Positions 31,134 to 40,194 of a stretch of 64,000 bases of DNA are shown in pieces. Source of the DNA: a phage; sequence record PZ386951.1; one strand, given 5' to 3'. Both the position numbers and the translations under genes were made by a program. A model generated the notes under the pieces. That model was not told the origin of the DNA. It ran no database searches and worked only from the letters and a program-made list of their open reading frames with translations. Numbering within the stretch: position 1 is the first letter of the stretch; each line of letters starts with the position of its first letter.

Positions 31134-33830
31134 TCAGCCAAACAGGAAGTCTAACGAAGCTTTTTCTTCATAGTCCATACCAGCCGATTCACACATGCCT
31201 GCAAGCGGTTTAACAAACGATTTTTGGAACAAAGTTGAGTAGTCAATCCAAGACAGTACGTCAGAACGAATTTCTTTTGGAAGTTCTGTACCCGACGGCC
31301 AAGCAATGCATTTGTCACCAAATGGATTTCCTTCACGTAATGGAAGAACCATTACTTTATTTCCATCCAAAATTGGAGCTACACCTAAACCGCTAACAGC
31401 TCGACGATAAGTTAACACCCCACGAATATGGAACGGGCATTTAAATCCTGGCCAACCTTTATCATCATATTTCGCTATATCGTTCGCAGTTTTTACTTCA
31501 GCGATAACTTTATAGTCAAGTTGACGATATTCTTTCTCAAAGTTCTTATAATATTCTTGAACAGACTCTTCGCCTTCTTGAAGAATACGACGGATACTTT
31601 CTTCAAGAGCTTCTTGGACCGCTTTAGGCGTTGAACTCTGCTGAGTTTCCATACCCATGATTTTTAGATGCGGTTCAGCAAATCGCTTATCTTCCATATC
31701 ATAAACGTTCAGAGCATAACGCTTTTTCGCTTTCCAAAATCCACCGACACCCTTTGAACCAAGCGGAGGACAAGAAATAGCTTCACGGTCCATATGCATC
31801 AGATGCTCGCGATTATTCATATAATCACATAACTCACGATATGCAACATCAATCATAGGTTCCATCTTTTTCTTACCGAACTGATTCATGAATTCAACTA
31901 AATCGTTCTGCTCTTTGAATCGGTCAAGACCTACTTTTTCAATAACTTTATCTACACAAACATATACCGAATCAGTATCACCTGCTGCGATGAAATCTTC
32001 ACCATTAGTTCCACATACTTTATTCAGATACTCATTAATTTTACGAGCAATCCACTGAATACCAACTTGGCCGAAAATTGTGATAGCAGTAGCATTTCGC
32101 AAATCATAGTAACGGAAATGAATATTACCAAGAGCACCGTAAAGACTGTTAATAAGAATTTTACGGTTTAGCTGATTTGTATTAGCAAGTGTAGCTGCTT
32201 TTTCACATTCTTCAATCAAACTATTGAGAACAGATTCAGTATAATTCGATAGTTCATTTAAGAAATCATCACTGAACTTAACATATCGTTCAACTTCAGG
32301 TTTAGTTGAACAAGACCCTGCGCCTTTCATAATAATCTTTTTAATAGCTTCGGCATTCATTTCTTCAGCGAACATTTTCTTTTTCCAATCTTTACGCTGG
32401 AAAAATACTTTAGCGATTTCCTTTGGAATGATACCTTCTTGATGCTTATCATACATCCATCCATTCGGAGAACAAGAATATTCATCACTCGGTTTAGGAG
32501 CTGTTCCTGCGATATATTCATGAATTGGATGAACTTTAAACTGCCCACGAATAGTCTCAGGACTAATGTTAACCTGACGAATAATGCTAGGATACAGAGA
32601 CGTCAAGTCAAAACTCATAATATATCGACGAGCAATTGGTTTAGGTTCAAACACAAATGCACCCGGAAAACTTTGTTTAACGTGCGAACCTTGTTGAGGA
32701 ATAACCTTATGTTCACCTTTCAATGAGTTAAAAATAATAGCATCCCAAGTTTTAATAGGACTCATTACACCAGAAAAAGGCATTTTAGCATAATAAGACA
32801 TACTTAAAACTAGATCGATAAACCCGCGAATTTTATCAATTGCTTGAACTGATTCTACGTCAATGATGTTATAACTAATATATCGTTGATGATTAGTCTC
32901 ACGAAGTTTATTAATAGGACCGTCGTATGGTAATTTACCTTTTTTGGTTTCATGTTGAGCAACTGATTCCAAAGAGAATGACGGCAAATTAGTAAAAGCG
33001 AATTTCTTGTACAAATCTAAATAATCAAGAATAGATACGCCATCAATAGAATAAATTTCTTTGCTACCGTACATATTTTGGATAAGTTTAGATTTTACTC
33101 GACCGATTGGAGAGAAGCGTTTCATACTACGTTCACCGAGAACCATTTTAACGCGATTCATGATATACGGAACGTCAAATCCCTCAATATTCCAACCGGT
33201 AAAAATAGCAGGTCGTTTCTGTTCCCAGAGATTAATATATTCCATGAGCATATCACGCTCATTATCAAATGGCATATAAATTACTCGGTCAAGAATTTCT
33301 TGAGGAACTTCATCACCACCTTCACAGTCAAGCTTAGCAGCTAACTTTGCATCCCATTTTGATACTGAACCGTACATTGAATTCAAAAGATCAAAAACAT
33401 AAAAACGATCATCAATTGAATCGTAATGAGTGATAGCATCAATTTCATATTCAGCTTTCATTGGGTCAGGAAATTTATCACCAGTAACCTCAATGTCACA
33501 GTTAGCTACACGAACAAATTTTCGGTCATAAACAATTTCTGAACCATATGTATCACTGATGTAAGCGAGTTTAAAATCGTTCATACCGAGAGCTTCGAGA
33601 CCGATGTCTTCCATTCGTTTCATCCAATCTCGAGCATCTTTCATTGATGGAAATTTTTGAGGAGCACAATTTTTACCATAAATGTCTTTGTACTTTGACT
33701 CTTCCTTACAATGCCTAAACATAGTCGGAAGATATTCTACTTCACGAGTACGTTCCTTTCCGTTTTCATCAATATAACGTTCAACAATGTTATTTCCGAC
33801 TGTTTCAATAGAGATATAAAATTCTTTCAT
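31134..33830 (-). CDS. 43: DNA polymerase gp43 (family B)
   Basis: 898-aa ORF, same length as T4 gp43; exonuclease and polymerase motifs (YGDTDS-like AAGDTDSVYV). Confidence 0.95.
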   Translation of the reverse strand: MKEFYISIETVGNNIVERYIDENGKERTREVEYLPTMFRHCKEESKYKDIYGKNCAPQKFPSMKDARDWMKRMEDIGLEALGMNDFKLAYISDTYGSEIVYDRKFVRVANCDIEVTGDKFPDPMKAEYEIDAITHYDSIDDRFYVFDLLNSMYGSVSKWDAKLAAKLDCEGGDEVPQEILDRVIYMPFDNERDMLMEYINLWEQKRPAIFTGWNIEGFDVPYIMNRVKMVLGERSMKRFSPIGRVKSKLIQNMYGSKEIYSIDGVSILDYLDLYKKFAFTNLPSFSLESVAQHETKKGKLPYDGPINKLRETNHQRYISYNIIDVESVQAIDKIRGFIDLVLSMSYYAKMPFSGVMSPIKTWDAIIFNSLKGEHKVIPQQGSHVKQSFPGAFVFEPKPIARRYIMSFDLTSLYPSIIRQVNISPETIRGQFKVHPIHEYIAGTAPKPSDEYSCSPNGWMYDKHQEGIIPKEIAKVFFQRKDWKKKMFAEEMNAEAIKKIIMKGAGSCSTKPEVERYVKFSDDFLNELSNYTESVLNSLIEECEKAATLANTNQLNRKILINSLYGALGNIHFRYYDLRNATAITIFGQVGIQWIARKINEYLNKVCGTNGEDFIAAGDTDSVYVCVDKVIEKVGLDRFKEQNDLVEFMNQFGKKKMEPMIDVAYRELCDYMNNREHLMHMDREAISCPPLGSKGVGGFWKAKKRYALNVYDMEDKRFAEPHLKIMGMETQQSSTPKAVQEALEESIRRILQEGEESVQEYYKNFEKEYRQLDYKVIAEVKTANDIAKYDDKGWPGFKCPFHIRGVLTYRRAVSGLGVAPILDGNKVMVLPLREGNPFGDKCIAWPSGTELPKEIRSDVLSWIDYSTLFQKSFVKPLAGMCESAGMDYEEKASLDFLFG

Positions 33831-34843: not shown

Positions 34844-35803
34844 TCACTTCCACTGCATTTCGCATGCCAATTGAATGAAAAGATATGCTAAATGTAACTC
34901 AGTATTAGCCGCAATTCCATGATACTGGTTATTTTCACCAACAATTTCATACATACGAATAATACTTTGCGGAGTTACACGTGTATAGATTTCTTCGGCA
35001 AGTTTACCCACGAACCACGAATAATCGGCTGCATATTTTGGTGCTAAAGCTCTGAGTTGTTTAACATCTTTATTTTTGAGAGACTCAAGAACATCATCAA
35101 TAGCACCACGATCGTTAGTAACCAGTGATAAAATACCAGCATCCAAAACACCTTTAGATGAATAACTATCGAGCTCACCAATAGTTTTACGAAAATCAGG
35201 AAAATTCTTTTTAACCAAAGCTGCTACAACTTTCATATCAGCTATAGCAATACCTTCATGTTTACAGATTTCAGTCAATCGACGAATCATCTGCTTCATC
35301 ATTTCAATTTTATCTTCATCGGTCGGTTGACCGAACGTAATAACTCGGCAGCGTGACTGAAGTGGTTTAATAATACCATCAATATTGTTAGCAGTAATAA
35401 TAATACTACAGTTTGAACTATAAGCTTCCATAAAGGAACGAAGATGTCGCTGAGACTCTGCTAGCCCTGAGCGGTCAAATTCATCAATAACAATTACTTT
35501 TTGACGACCATCAAATGAAGCTGCACTAGCAAAATTAGTCAAAGGACCGCGAACAAAATCAATTTTACAATCTGATCCATTCACAAACATCATATCAGCA
35601 TTTACATCATGACACAATGCTTTTGCTACAGTTGTTTTACCTGTTCCTGGAGAAGGAGAATGAAGAATAATATGTGGAATCTTACCTTTACTTGTAATAG
35701 ATTTAAAGGTTTCTTTATCAAAGGCGGGAAGAATACATTCATCGATAGTAGATGGACGATATTTCTGTTCAAGAATGTGTTCTTTTTCATTTACGGTAAT
35801 CAT
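34844..35803 (-). CDS. 44: clamp-loader ATPase gp44 (RFC-like AAA+)
   Basis: 319 aa from [11 protein letters not shown] (GAGGAAA RBS); Walker A SPGTGKTT; track ORF begins 5 codons upstream. Confidence 0.9.
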
Positions 35804-35838
35804 AATTTCCTCATTCAAGTTTTAGTGTAAATTATAAA

Positions 35839-35850
35839 GGGCCGAAGCCC
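35839..35850 (-). terminator. GC stem-loop (UUCG loop) 3' of gene 45
   Basis: GGGC CGAA GCCC. Confidence 0.45.
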
Positions 35851-35854
35851 TCTA

Positions 35855-36541
35855 TTAAAAATCGTGGGTAGAATCAGCTTCAAGAGCTACTACATAATTC
35901 GCGTGTTCACCTTCAAATTTAGCAGCACCTTGTTTACCTTTTGCCCAGAGCAGAAGTTTATAATTTCCTGGTTGCATTTTCATATTTGCCATATTGATAA
36001 TGAAATTAAATGTATTTTCACCATCATAATCACCAAGAGTCAAAGAATATTTAACACGGGTCAGAGCAGAATCTTCTACTTTATTAAAACCGTTAATTAC
36101 GATTTTACCTTCTTTTACCGTGATAGCAATTGTATCAATTTGCAGACCACGAGATACACGCAACAGTTGTTGAAGGTCTTCAGCTTTAATTTCAGTAACA
36201 ACAGATGCTACCGGGAATGGAATTGGTTTATTAGGAGCAACTACTGTACTCGGATCGGCTGCTGGCCAAAAAATTGTTGAGCGGGCATCAGCAATTTTAA
36301 TATTTCCATCTTCTGACTGAGAAATTTCTGCATCATCATTAACTAAAGACAGAATACCGAGAAAACCGTTCAAATCGTAAATTGCTACATCAAAATCAAT
36401 AACGTCAGAAATATTTGCTTCCGCATAAGTTGTACCATTAACTGCGCGAGTCATAATAAATTGACCGGATTTAAGCATAATACCAGAGTTAATAGTAGCG
36501 AAATTTTTCAAAATATTCAGTGTGTCTTTAGATAATTTCAT
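35855..36541 (-). CDS. 45: sliding clamp gp45
   Basis: 228-aa ORF, same length as T4 gp45. Confidence 0.92.
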   Translation of the reverse strand: MKLSKDTLNILKNFATINSGIMLKSGQFIMTRAVNGTTYAEANISDVIDFDVAIYDLNGFLGILSLVNDDAEISQSEDGNIKIADARSTIFWPAADPSTVVAPNKPIPFPVASVVTEIKAEDLQQLLRVSRGLQIDTIAITVKEGKIVINGFNKVEDSALTRVKYSLTLGDYDGENTFNFIINMANMKMQPGNYKLLLWAKGKQGAAKFEGEHANYVVALEADSTHDF

Positions 36542-37425
36542 TTCAATTTCCTATTTACATAATAGTTAGACCAGGACCGTACAGCACCCTGATAAGATTC
36601 GTCGTTAAACCCATTAGCTACTGCAATTTTACGAAATTTATTATAACTTGGTTTTCCGTAAGCATGCCATAAAGATTTTAATTCATCTTCATGTTCAATC
36701 CAAGTTCCTCTAGCTTTAGATTTTCTAAATTTTGATTTGAATTCCGGTAAATTATTTCTAACAGTTGCTTGAATTGAAGCTCTCTGTCTTCTTTTAGCAT
36801 TATTCCATAATTCTTTTTGAGATTTAGAAATTTTTGATCTTACACTTTCTGAATTCATTATATCACTAAACTTTTTAGCATAACTACAATCAAGATATTT
36901 CAATTTCATCTTATTTGAGAGTTTAAGCTTTTTCTCATCGGTCCAGTGATTCTTCATTGAATTAGATATTTTGTATTTTACTTCAGAACTATGTTTGTAA
37001 CCTTTACGAATACCGACATACTCAGGCGTAATTTCAGATTGCGAAAGCTTTACAATTTTTCCAGTTAAAACATTTTTATATGTTCCATATCCTTTAGCAC
37101 CAATTAAAGTATTTTCATCTGCGTATGCTTTATTAAAATATTTTATATTACTTTTTGCTTTAACTTTTAATTGAAAAAATCTCTCCAATTTTCTTGGATC
37201 TAATATAGTTTCAGCTAAAATTTTGACGGTATATTTAGTGGTTTTAATAAGTTCAAAATATTCATCGCTATAACTCGATGACACGCTTCCAGTATAAATC
37301 TTTCCAGCTGAATCAATTATATTTGTTCCATCGAAAATTGCGTTAATTTTTGAACCTATATAATAACACGGAAAAATATTTTTAGCTTCCCGCTCTGGAA
37401 AGCTAATAAGATATACTAAATTCAT
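36538..37425 (-). CDS. GIY-YIG homing endonuclease (Seg-like) with NUMOD-like DNA-binding repeats
   Basis: N-terminus VYLISF...CYYIGSK (GIY-YIG variant); repeats [18 protein letters not shown] and [14 protein letters not shown]; overlaps gene 45 start and rpbA stop by 4 nt each. Confidence 0.7.
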
Positions 37426-37811
37426 TTATTAAACTCGGCCACAATTGTTTCCGCAACAATTTGTGCAGCAACAATCAGACGTTCATCTGCATTACCACAA
37501 TAATCATCTTCAAGGCGTTCACCGCATGAAGTCATAATAAATTTAGCACCGGCGTTTAGGGATTCTGTAGTATGTTTGCGCATTAGTTCAATCCATTTAT
37601 TACTTACTTCACGATCGATAGCTTCATAATACGCATGACGAGCAGGTGCAGATTTAATTTTGTTCTGAATAACTTCCATTGCGTTATCAGAAAGAGACAA
37701 AACCCATGCTCGACGAATTTTATTTTGGTTTTGTGGATTTGATTCAGAACGCACGTGTTTTGGCTGAATATCTTTTACGTCAACAGTATAATTCACAGTA
37801 ATTTTAGTCAT
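37422..37811 (-). CDS. rpbA: RpbA RNA-polymerase-binding protein
   Basis: 129-aa ORF, same length as T4 RpbA, in the 45-46 interval. Confidence 0.75.
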
Positions 37812-37820
37812 AATACACCT

Positions 37821-38009
37821 TTAGTCATAATAATCAGTAACAGTCCAAGCTTCATTTCTATTGGACATTATTTTTGTATATTCTGCTTTAAATGCATTCC
37901 TAAGCATAGATTCAGTAACTATATGCTCTTCATTAGAAAAATTATTTCTCAGAATATATCGTTTTATTTCAGGAATAGTTAATAGATGCTGTCCAGTTGA
38001 ATATTCCAT
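37821..38009 (-). CDS. hypothetical protein (62 aa)
   Basis: ATG with GGAGGA RBS downstream of middle promoter. Confidence 0.5.
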   Translation of the reverse strand: MEYSTGQHLLTIPEIKRYILRNNFSNEEHIVTESMLRNAFKAEYTKIMSNRNEAWTVTDYYD

Positions 38010-38026
38010 GTTTTTCCTCCATAGAG

Positions 38027-38050
38027 ATTATACTCTAATAAATTAAAGCA
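38027..38050 (-). promoter_or_regulatory. MotA-dependent middle promoter (MotA box TGCTTTA, 11-nt spacer, TATAAT)
   Basis: Minus strand reads ttaTGCTTTAatttattagagTATAAT. Confidence 0.6.
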
Positions 38051-38064
38051 TAATCTCTTATAAA

Positions 38065-39747
38065 TTAAACCATTACAGTAAATCGACCGACTTTCTTCAT
38101 TTGAAGATGCTGACCATATTCTTGCGGGTCATGGTCTTTATGCGAAATTATAAAAACATTAGTGTTTTTCATTGAATTTATAATATTAGCTACACCTTTA
38201 ATACCTTCGGCATCAAATGACCCATCAAACACTTCATCAAGAATTAATGTACTAATACTAACACCAGATACGATAGAAGCAATATCACGCCAAGTAAATA
38301 AAAGAGCAATATCGATTCGTGCCTTTTCACCTTCACTAAATGAAGCATAACTAAAATCTTCACGACCACGGGATTTAATTGTCTCATTAAATTCTTCATC
38401 TAATGTAAACACATAATCCGCTTCCATTATTTTAAGATAATGGTTAATCTGCTTATTAAATAATGGAATGTACTTTTTAATAATAGCACCTTTAATACCA
38501 GAATCTTTGAGCATATCAGTCAAAATTCCTCGGTGATATTTTTCCATTACTAAATTAGTTTTTGTCTTAACAATTTTATCAAGTTCTTCTTGAAGCAGTG
38601 CTATTTCGTCAGCATGGTCAATAAACTCAGAAGATGCTTTTTCTATAGCTGCTTTAACTTTTTTGGCTTTATCTACCGTCGTGATTAGAGATTGCTTTTT
38701 ATTGCGAATATCATTTGCCAACGACTGCTGGGTTTTAATATTATCTCGGTATTCATCAACAAGAACTTTTAAATTATCACGATGTGTTGAAAGCTGTTCA
38801 AACGAATGCGTACATTCAGAAACTTTATCTTTAATTTTAGAAACAACTTTATCACCGGAACTCAATTGTGACAAACAGGTTGGACATAATCCACCTTCGT
38901 GATACATATTAATGACTTTATTATATGAGTCAATTTTTGATTTAATTAAAAATGCTTCTTGACCGATTTTATTAAATGCATCAGTCGGGTCTTCATCCAA
39001 AACAATATTAACTAATCTTTCATTAGCTTCTTCTATTTCCGATTTTAGCGTTCTAGCTTCTTTTGCCAAATCATCATACATATTTTGTAGACGAGTAAGG
39101 TTGTCACCCGTTAATTTTTTCTGGCGTTCAACGTTATCATTATATATTTTAATTTGTTGGATAATACTATCTTTTTTAACATCAAGCACTTGGTTTTGTG
39201 AATTTAATTCACGTATTAGTGCTTTATTAAGCTTATCCATTTCAGCTAATGTTCCTACCTCAAGCAGGTCTTCCACAAGCTTTCTTCGCGCAGGGGTCGA
39301 CAAACCCATGAAAGGGGTATACCCTGCTGTACCAAGGACAACAATCTGCTTGAAACTGGCATATGACATTCCGATAAGCTGTTCAAATTCTGCTTGGAAA
39401 TCTTTACTGCTGGCAGATTCATTAAGACGTGTACCGTTAACGGTGATTTCGAAAACGTTTGGTTTTTGTCCTCTTTTGATATAGTACTTTTTCTCATCAT
39501 ATTCCATCCACAGTTCAACTAAAAGTTCTTTCTTATTTGTGCTGTTTATTAATTGACCTTTCTTTACATCACGGAATGGCTTGCCAAAAAGCCCAAATGT
39601 GATGGCTTCTAACATAGTAGACTTACCACCGCCATTTCGTCCAGTAATAAGAGTTTTTTGAACCTTATCTAATTGAATGTCAATCCCATTTTGACCAACT
39701 GACATTATATTTTTATATTTTACTCTATTAAGTTTAAAATTCTTCAC
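38065..39747 (-). CDS. 46: recombination nuclease subunit gp46 (SbcC/Rad50-like)
   Basis: 560-aa ORF, same length as T4 gp46; Walker A GRNGGGKST; coiled-coil middle; CPTC zinc hook. Confidence 0.92.
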   Translation of the reverse strand: MKNFKLNRVKYKNIMSVGQNGIDIQLDKVQKTLITGRNGGGKSTMLEAITFGLFGKPFRDVKKGQLINSTNKKELLVELWMEYDEKKYYIKRGQKPNVFEITVNGTRLNESASSKDFQAEFEQLIGMSYASFKQIVVLGTAGYTPFMGLSTPARRKLVEDLLEVGTLAEMDKLNKALIRELNSQNQVLDVKKDSIIQQIKIYNDNVERQKKLTGDNLTRLQNMYDDLAKEARTLKSEIEEANERLVNIVLDEDPTDAFNKIGQEAFLIKSKIDSYNKVINMYHEGGLCPTCLSQLSSGDKVVSKIKDKVSECTHSFEQLSTHRDNLKVLVDEYRDNIKTQQSLANDIRNKKQSLITTVDKAKKVKAAIEKASSEFIDHADEIALLQEELDKIVKTKTNLVMEKYHRGILTDMLKDSGIKGAIIKKYIPLFNKQINHYLKIMEADYVFTLDEEFNETIKSRGREDFSYASFSEGEKARIDIALLFTWRDIASIVSGVSISTLILDEVFDGSFDAEGIKGVANIINSMKNTNVFIISHKDHDPQEYGQHLQMKKVGRFTVMV

Positions 39748-40007
39748 AAAAGATTCCTTTTAATGTATCTTTTAGACCATTCTATCATATCATCATAATC
39801 TAAAAAGTATTCATCAAATTCAGCCATGCAAACAACGCCTTGTGCTGTTTTTGATGTGATATAAATTATTCCAACATATCTAGAATCTTCTTCGGTATAA
39901 TCAATGTTTGCTATGAATTCATCATTAATGTCAAATGTCGAAAACTTCACAGTATGCATCCTTAATACAAGATACAGCCATATCTCGTAATGATTTAGGT
40001 GTGTCAT
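39744..40007 (-). CDS. hypothetical protein (87 aa)
   Basis: Minus ORF between 47 and 46. Confidence 0.5.
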   Translation of the reverse strand: MTHLNHYEIWLYLVLRMHTVKFSTFDINDEFIANIDYTEEDSRYVGIIYITSKTAQGVVCMAEFDEYFLDYDDMIEWSKRYIKRNLL

Positions 40008-40194
40008 TATCTAAAATGTTGAAGTTAAAAGATACAGCCCAGTCAGTGCAGACTGTAACCTTTTTAATACAATTATCTTCAACCTCTAACGGTTCAAACC
40101 AGTATTCAATAATTTCTTTATGCCCAATATCATCTTTTACTTCGCATTCAAAATGCTGACTCATCATAACATTTTTAAATTCATCAAAAGTCAT
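39931..40194 (-). CDS. hypothetical protein (87 aa)
   Basis: Minus ORF; overlaps previous ORF in another frame, so start of one may be mis-set. Confidence 0.45.
   Translation of the reverse strand: MTFDEFKNVMMSQHFECEVKDDIGHKEIIEYWFEPLEVEDNCIKKVTVCTDWAVSFNFNILDNDTPKSLRDMAVSCIKDAYCEVFDI

Follow-up and report, generated by a model that had tools for sequence, protein, structure and literature searches.

A very probable Seg-type GIY-YIG homing endonuclease gene at the rpbA/gene 45 junction of a T4-like phage

A stretch of 64,000 nucleotides from phage sequence record PZ386951.1 (hereafter, the window) contains the replication-gene cluster of a Tequatrovirus (T4-like) genome, in which the minus-strand gene order is 46, 45.2, rpbA, an open reading frame (ORF), 45, 44, 62, regA and 43. 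The ORF (36538..37425, minus strand) extends for 295 amino acids from ATG to stop, and is very probably a free-standing Seg-type GIY-YIG homing endonuclease gene resident at the rpbA/gene 45 junction. An earlier note on this DNA, made from the letters alone, had described a 295-amino-acid frame between the sliding-clamp gene (45) and rpbA that overlaps both by 4 nucleotides, and had interpreted it as a free-standing homing endonuclease with a GIY-YIG-type N-terminus. We find the frame as described. Its stop overlaps the start of gene 45 (35855..36541) at 36538-36541, its start overlaps the stop of rpbA (37422..37811) at 37422-37425, both junctions read ATGA, and every peptide quoted in the note occurs in the translation. 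Annotated homologues identify the flanking products as gp45 and RpbA.

Two results show that the reading frame did not arise by chance: its ratio of nonsynonymous to synonymous substitution rates (dN/dS) against orthologues is 0.13-0.25, and a hidden Markov model of its own clade matches 262 cluster representatives at E<=1e-3 among the 1.84 billion searched. Neither a group I intron nor any other Rfam family was detected in 35000-38500. The possibility of an ORF encoded within a group I intron was therefore rejected, and the gene is free-standing, as the note had proposed: it lies between the conserved genes rpbA and 45 and outside any intron or intein, which is one of the features by which we recognize Seg genes.

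Membership in the GIY-YIG/Seg family and domain layout

The ORF product matches PHROG 655 ("homing endonuclease") over its whole length (E 4.6e-33), and its closest characterized relative is T4 SegG, which is 40% identical over ORF residues 1-103 (BLASTP, E 1e-16 pairwise). This significant similarity to a characterized Seg enzyme was also recovered by tblastn against a 2.3-Gb phage collection (E 3e-9), with segG matches across T4-like phages. The predicted catalytic domain spans approximately residues 1-105 (37111..37425, minus strand) and includes Y5, Y22-I23-G24, Y44, S47, E81 and N98. In an alignment of the ORF product, four close relatives, one distant relative and T4 SegA-G (A2), the only invariant columns are Y22, G24, Y44, E81 and N98, which represent the YIG motif, the Seg-typical YxGS, and the metal-binding Glu and Asn. 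A 125-member family alignment (A6) was assembled without any T4 Seg or I-TevI sequence; in it Y5, Y22, G24, Y44, S47 and N98 are invariant, and E81 is conserved at 90% or more. Y5, which lies in V4-Y5-L6 and aligns to Y6 of I-TevI, is also invariant in a 132-member alignment. The YIG motif of the second beta-strand is present as Y22-I23-G24, with Y22 and G24 invariant in the clade, in T4 SegA-G and in the wider family.

Comparison of the A6 profile with one of I-TevI and SegA-E by hhalign gave a probability of 96.4% (E 1.2e-9, 156 columns), pairing VY with GIY, YYIGS with YVGS, and E81 and N98 with the metal-binding E75 and N90 of I-TevI. An AlphaFold2 model of residues 1-140, built from the family alignment, has a predicted local distance difference test score (pLDDT) of 93.2 and a predicted template-modelling score (pTM) of 0.84, and contains the three-stranded sheet and helices of a GIY-YIG catalytic domain. 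The earlier note had suggested alignment with SegA-G and I-TevI, and had regarded the absence of a GIY-YIG fold in profile or structure searches as grounds for abandoning its assignment. The alignment reveals common motif residues and the profile comparison finds the family, so the proposed GIY-YIG-type N-terminus is well supported. By analogy with the characterized enzymes, the product is presumably an active nuclease.

Several results weigh against this assignment. The ORF has no match above threshold to the Pfam GIY-YIG families PF01541 and PF19835; its Pfam output consists of two weak matches to domains of unknown function and a NUMOD3 (PF07460) match below the gathering score (E 0.1, 13 bits versus a cut-off of 20.4, residues 142-158). 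An NCBIfam scan of the ORF gave no match. Foldseek places I-TevI (1ln0) first for the domain model, but not significantly (E 1.7). No ORF residue aligns to Arg27 of I-TevI, whose segment falls in a gap of the hhalign alignment. A profile of the six-sequence clade gave an hhalign E of 0.034 and a probability of 1.5%, and was superseded by the 125-sequence profile. Finally, the literature searched contains no cleavage or homing data for an rpbA/45 endonuclease. The Pfam negative carries low weight, because the characterized T4 enzymes SegG and SegF also score nothing there, whereas SegA-E and I-TevI do score. SegG and SegF likewise lack a GIY-YIG match when NCBIfam is included, and these databases miss the SegG-like branch of GIY-YIG enzymes. 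At the position of Arg27 there is no invariant Arg in the active T4 SegA-G either (A2), and K26 is conserved at a level of at least 90% in A6.

Two further approaches were set aside. Searches of PDB sequences with phmmer and the shallow profile returned a spurious GNAT match or nothing. The full-length AlphaFold2 model was mediocre (pLDDT 72.6, pTM 0.35), its alignment being dominated by SegA-E-like proteins, and Foldseek found nothing significant with it; the domain model was used in its place.

Nuclease, linker and DNA-binding domain follow one another as they do in I-TevI and the Seg enzymes. Following the catalytic part is a subfamily-specific three-stranded beta module at approximately residues 106-140 (37006..37110, minus strand; strands 113-118, 124-128 and 136-138). 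Its consensus, YxTYKHxxTGKxxRL...YVGVTKG, is conserved in A6 and in a further alignment (A7), and it is modelled with pLDDT 76-90. The module is absent from T4 SegA-G in A2, and could possibly contact DNA. Approximately residues 142-225 (36751..37002, minus strand) form a predicted helical linker with two NUMOD3-like repeats. These appear to be degenerate, because the ORF itself is below the Pfam threshold although 78 of the 125 family members reach significance and the family profile matches the NUMOD3 stretch of the I-TevI DNA-binding fragment (chain 1i3j, E 7e-5), to which hhalign aligns residues 185-201. The repeated NUMOD-like motifs reported in the earlier note reach significance at the level of the family, and stay below threshold in the ORF taken singly. 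The C-terminal domain, at approximately residues 246-294 (36541..36690, minus strand), is predicted to have three helices (246-255, 261-270 and 276-290 in the full-length model) in a helix-turn-helix-like arrangement, as in SegA and SegF. Its resemblance to the SegA C-terminus is detected by BLASTP (34% over 32 amino acids, E 2e-4), and that to SegF by alignment.

SegG and the ORF product have in common an MN(I/L)VY start, P-x-YYIGSK and YFN motifs within the 103-amino-acid catalytic domain, and the lack of a Pfam GIY-YIG match. Both genes are free-standing, have no promoter of their own and precede an essential replication gene, whose promoters lie inside the ORF in the case of segG (PMC2988022) and are represented by a promoter-like motif in the present ORF. 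However, the two differ in site (rpbA/45 versus 59/32) and in length (295 versus 210 amino acids), and SegG has no counterpart of the beta module, the NUMOD3-like repeats or the SegA/SegF-like C-terminal domain. With SegA and SegF the ORF product shares the C-terminal motif ELW..GKP....K.A and the modular plan of nuclease, NUMOD3 linker and DNA-binding domain, but their catalytic domains are far more distant (13-21% overall), and their sites are uvsX/beta-gt and 56/soc. Unlike I-TevI, the endonuclease of the td intron (PDB 1ln0, 1i3j), the ORF is not intron-encoded, and its product has no zinc finger and no identifiable equivalent of Arg27; sequence identity is about 14-23%.

Occupied and empty sites in three genera

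The earlier note had described this site as not occupied in T4, and had proposed that the gene is likely a lineage-specific mobile insertion, a view to be given up if the same ORF were universally present at the locus. T4 indeed lacks the insert, and has a 55-bp spacer from rpbA to gene 45 (32604-32658). Comparison of the 45-rpbA interval shows that only a minority of records in each of three genera carry the insert. It is present in 25 of about 504 Tequatrovirus records (band of at least 90% identity), full-length in all 25, and about 480 records, or some 95%, are empty. In Mosigvirus it occurs in 10 of about 154 records (at least 95%), and in Gaprivervirus in 3 of 34, which correspond to VR26 (listed under two accessions) and TH15. 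Empty Tequatrovirus records have a query coverage of ~55% with flanks up to 98.3% identical, and empty close relatives in Mosigvirus and Gaprivervirus have flanks that are ~98.5% identical. Presence/absence polymorphism with conserved flanks among close relatives, another hallmark that we use for Seg genes, is therefore seen in all three genera. Orthologues from Mosigvirus and Gaprivervirus share 54-59% amino acid identity with the window protein and 62% with each other, and they reside at exactly the same junction. The polymorphism and the empty T4 site agree with the proposed mobile insertion; the same junction is also occupied in minorities of two other genera. Relatives of the same family are found at other sites, namely at 32/59 (segG), next to gene 49 and inside uvsX, and the present ORF is presumably mobile as well. 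A scan of IMG/VR with RpbA yielded six loci, none with the insert.

The dN/dS values are 0.13-0.15 within Tequatrovirus and 0.18-0.25 between genera, and therefore the endonuclease protein is under purifying selection. Flank diversity and fixed differences were compared among 13 Tequatrovirus sequences, 6 from carriers and 7 from non-carriers. At distances of more than ~20 nucleotides from either junction, carriers and non-carriers differ from each other by as much as sequences of the same group do, and no signature of a sweep or of co-conversion was detected there. The element is therefore not the product of a recent single sweep, and the linkage between insert and flanks has been broken by recombination. 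Frameshifted copies arising through indels in homopolymer runs (T6 to T7, CC to CCC, A7 to A11) occur in ESh24, EC121 and AV115, and several Mosigvirus copies (including those of JM17, FL18 and G2285) are annotated as split into 2-3 fragments. Broken copies may reflect decay of the element or homopolymer sequencing error; frameshifted copies are as expected in the life cycle of a homing endonuclease.

Over rpbA-ORF-45, the closest public genomes, those of Shigella phage SHBML-50-1 and Escherichia phage PaulHMueller/Bas45, have 99.5% identity to the window; in their annotation the ORF is variously a "homing endonuclease", a "putative homing endonuclease" or a "hypothetical protein". Unnamed orthologues (bas45_0164 of Bas45 PaulHMueller, and those of SHBML-50-1, VR26 (VR26_053) and FL31) represent the same gene at the same site, with 97-99.7% identity within Tequatrovirus, and several database orthologues are frameshifted or start-truncated in annotation. 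The exact protein sequence of the window is not present in a collection of 15 billion proteins, and literature searches combining rpbA with homing endonuclease or GIY-YIG found no named or studied example of an rpbA/45 endonuclease. The gene is therefore already in public genomes, sometimes labelled as a putative homing endonuclease, but is otherwise an uncharacterized SegG-related enzyme. With it, the catalogue of T-even mobile elements gains an uncharacterized enzyme of the Seg type and, in the rpbA/gene 45 junction, a new presumed homing site.

Other insertions were noted in these phages. Some family relatives sit inside uvsX and split it: ELT1_61 of Escherichia phage ELT1 (locus L021, 1528-4013) is 37% identical over residues 1-157, and a P0005 relative (loci L022/L023, 3032-5495), also inside uvsX, is 40% identical over the N-terminal half. 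The interrupted uvsX consists of a RecA_N ORF and an ORF for the UvsX C-terminus, and Pfam gives a weak intein-splicing match for one downstream fragment. Mosigvirus FL31 has a second annotated "homing endonuclease" (locus L015, 81-797, minus strand) between 46 and 45.2, on the opposite strand and ~700 bp upstream of the rpbA/45 element. Gaprivervirus VR20 lacks the rpbA/45 insert and has an extra hypothetical ORF of 196 amino acids between 45 and 44 (locus L026, 2170-2760), which is absent from the window and from T4 and could be another mobile insertion.

Expression signals and a candidate target in gene 45

The T4 spacer includes TTGCTTTA-N12-TAAAAT, which is a perfect MotA box and -10 element, and the start site of the middle promoter P45 has been mapped within it, at 32626 (Hinton 2010, PMC2988021, Table 1). 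In carriers, the entire spacer with P45 is replaced by the endonuclease gene. Inside the 3' end of the ORF, 123 nucleotides upstream of the gene 45 ATG, is a middle-promoter-like motif, TGCTTAC-N12-TATAAT (36640..36664, minus strand), as judged by the consensus and 12+/-1 spacing given in PMC2988021. It is found in all three lineages, with the version TGCTTTA-N12-TATATT in VR26 and FL31/AV115. The window has 4 occurrences of TGCTT-N14-TATAWT, compared with 0.29 expected, and 0 of 100 shuffles reached 4. A scan for sigma-70 promoters gave sites no commoner than in shuffles, and was not used. The motif at -123 may be a substitute gene 45 promoter, but two points argue against this role: the window MotA box, TGCTTAC, deviates from TGCTTtA, and the motif overlaps the conserved peptide W-x-A-L/Y-G-K-P-S-Y, so that its conservation could be protein-driven. 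Because of this overlap, promoter function is something that we infer.

The ribosome-binding site of gene 45 can be read directly in the last ORF codons, AAT AGG AAA TTG AAA TGA (36542..36556, minus strand), which include the Shine-Dalgarno sequence AGGAAA. All lineages derive it from AAT AGG AAA nnn AAA TGA, and AATAGGAAA of this site is kept in all three. In view of the embedded promoter motif and Shine-Dalgarno sequence, precise deletion of the insert would be costly. Promoters of gene 32 have been located inside segG (Edgell et al. 2010, PMC2988022). The locus is a clear computational example of a selfish gene that replaces the mapped promoter of an essential gene and apparently carries a substitute, the same arrangement as reported for gene 32 and segG.

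In FL31, a middle-promoter-like TGCTTGA-N12-TAATAT spans the rpbA 3' end and the endonuclease 5' end (locus L015, 1483-1517). Transcripts starting from it would begin inside the endonuclease ORF, downstream of its ATG, and the motif may be what is left of the P45 MotA box after its displacement.

Expression of the endonuclease itself is probably low, because the gene has no promoter motif of its own, a weak Shine-Dalgarno sequence (GAG), an ATGA overlap with rpbA that suggests translational coupling, and a hairpin after its start codon. Upstream of the ORF, the window shows neither a middle- nor a late-type promoter motif, and the late promoter TATAAATA is absent near the locus in every lineage. 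A small predicted hairpin covers the Shine-Dalgarno-like GAG and the AUG (37420-37438, minus strand), and a 10-bp, GC-containing, terminator-like hairpin lies at +20 to +44 of the ORF (37382..37406, minus strand; z -2.0 for the 100-nucleotide region). VR26 has a non-homologous and stronger 12-bp hairpin at a similar place (z -3.3), and FL31 has none. These hairpins could act as expression control, down-regulating the endonuclease. Together, these features are suggestive of the tight down-regulation known for T4 endonucleases.

Outside the insert, carriers and non-carriers among the 13 Tequatrovirus sequences show fixed differences only at the end of rpbA and at three synonymous positions of gene 45. 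At the upstream junction, the last codon and stop of rpbA change from CGT TAA to AAA TGA (37422..37427, minus strand), which creates the ATGA overlap; the change of TAA to TGA is also seen in Mosigvirus and Gaprivervirus carriers. The synonymous differences are at gene 45 nucleotides 7, 9 and 18 (window positions 36535, 36533 and 36524), and belong to an insert-linked substitution cluster at nucleotides 7-27 (36515..36535, minus strand). When one carrier and one non-carrier were compared in each genus, gene 45 mismatches were concentrated in the first 30 nucleotides: 3 of 8 in Tequatrovirus (Fisher p 0.004), 13 of 17 in Mosigvirus (p 2e-16) and 8 of 16 in Gaprivervirus (p 5e-8). The changes include a synonymous Ser switch (TCT to AGC/AGT) and K5R. 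Insert-less alleles of all three genera have ATGAAAYTNTCTAAAGAYAC in common.

Judging from this pattern, the recognition or cleavage region likeliest includes the start of gene 45, with nucleotides 7-27 as the candidate target. The carrier-linked changes may represent immunity substitutions, the innermost part of a co-converted donor tract, or both. Against a role in immunity, the cluster could be hitch-hiking donor sequence. A bolder reading is that the gene represents a distinct, genus-spanning Seg lineage dedicated to the start of the clamp gene, whose site is the conserved first ~27 nucleotides of gene 45, which has swapped P45 for a promoter in its own ORF and so rewired an essential gene of replication and late transcription, and for which the carrier-specific synonymous recoding of codons 3-9 (including the Ser switch) is evolved self-immunity. 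We regard this reading as conceivable but rather doubtful; if it is true, clamp-gene alleles in T-even populations are shaped by endonuclease drive.

Proposed homing mechanism and alternative explanations

By analogy with SegF, SegG and SegE, homing would take place in mixed infections with a T-even phage that lacks the insert. With the NUMOD3-like linker and the C-terminal helix-turn-helix-like domain binding the DNA, the GIY-YIG domain would make its cut either in the 45-rpbA spacer or close to the gene 45 start. Repair of the break would depend on recombination, with the carrier genome serving as the template from which the endonuclease gene and a short run of flanking markers are copied. 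The insert would compensate for the lost P45 spacer with its internal MotA-box/-10 motif and with the Shine-Dalgarno sequence that its own codons provide for gene 45. The three-genus comparison offers a short, directly testable candidate target, gene 45 nucleotides 7-27. Confirmation of this target would add the enzyme to the modular GIY-YIG nucleases that have a defined long target, and would account for localized allele exclusion near the clamp gene, both when phages are crossed and in engineered phage cocktails.

The low frequency of the gene (about 4-9% in each genus, with no sweep), its several frameshifted copies and the lack of an identifiable canonical catalytic Arg could also indicate a domesticated or immobile Seg remnant. 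Such a remnant might be kept for the gene 45 promoter and Shine-Dalgarno sequence, whose presence in the insert would make deletion costly, or for another role such as that of a DNA-binding regulator. We consider this improbable. The 125-member family retains the other catalytic motif residues (Y5, Y22, G24, E81 and N98), the ORF is under purifying selection along its whole length, and active T4 Seg enzymes have the same Arg-less motif set. Moreover, polymorphism amid near-identical flanks in three genera is the pattern that active homing or recurrent exchange would generate. Somewhat less probable still is an ancestral gene, present at rpbA/45 in the common ancestor of Tequatrovirus, Mosigvirus and Gaprivervirus and repeatedly deleted since. 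The orthologues at the same junction fit such an origin, and so does the divergence of the endonucleases (54-62% amino acid identity), which is comparable to the divergence of gp45 (59-79%) and RpbA (39-62%). However, many independent and precise deletions would be needed, each restoring a functional spacer with P45. All 7 Tequatrovirus non-carriers examined have the same junction, and the 55-bp spacers of T4 and G8 are identical. The identities are also incongruent, in that gp45 groups Tequatrovirus with Mosigvirus (79%) but the endonucleases are roughly equidistant, and the family is demonstrably mobile, given the relatives described above that occupy 32/59, uvsX and a position beside gene 49. 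Our preferred explanation of a Seg-type homing endonuclease would also accommodate long residence at the site, with repeated homing and loss.

The nuclease might instead serve mainly in competition or defence, by excluding co-infecting phages or by promoting local recombination or amplification, with self-propagation being secondary. Localized marker exclusion by Seg enzymes has been described (SegG; cited in PMC2988022 and PMC10448857), SegB is reported in a 2026 paper to promote amplification of anti-defence loci (PMC13096335), and the clamp gene, in which the candidate target lies, is essential. But there is no sign of adjacent anti-defence cargo at the locus, and such a function is compatible with homing rather than exclusive of it; as the primary role, we judge it very unlikely.

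Elsewhere in the cluster, a 200-bp stretch in the 3' part of gene 46 (38113-38312) has a nucleotide diversity of ~0.14 in seven insert-less genomes versus 0.015 in six carriers. Adjoining segments are at or below 0.04, and the stretch looks mosaic or recombinant. Two overlapping ORFs of 87 amino acids lie between genes 46 and 47 (39744-40194, minus strand).

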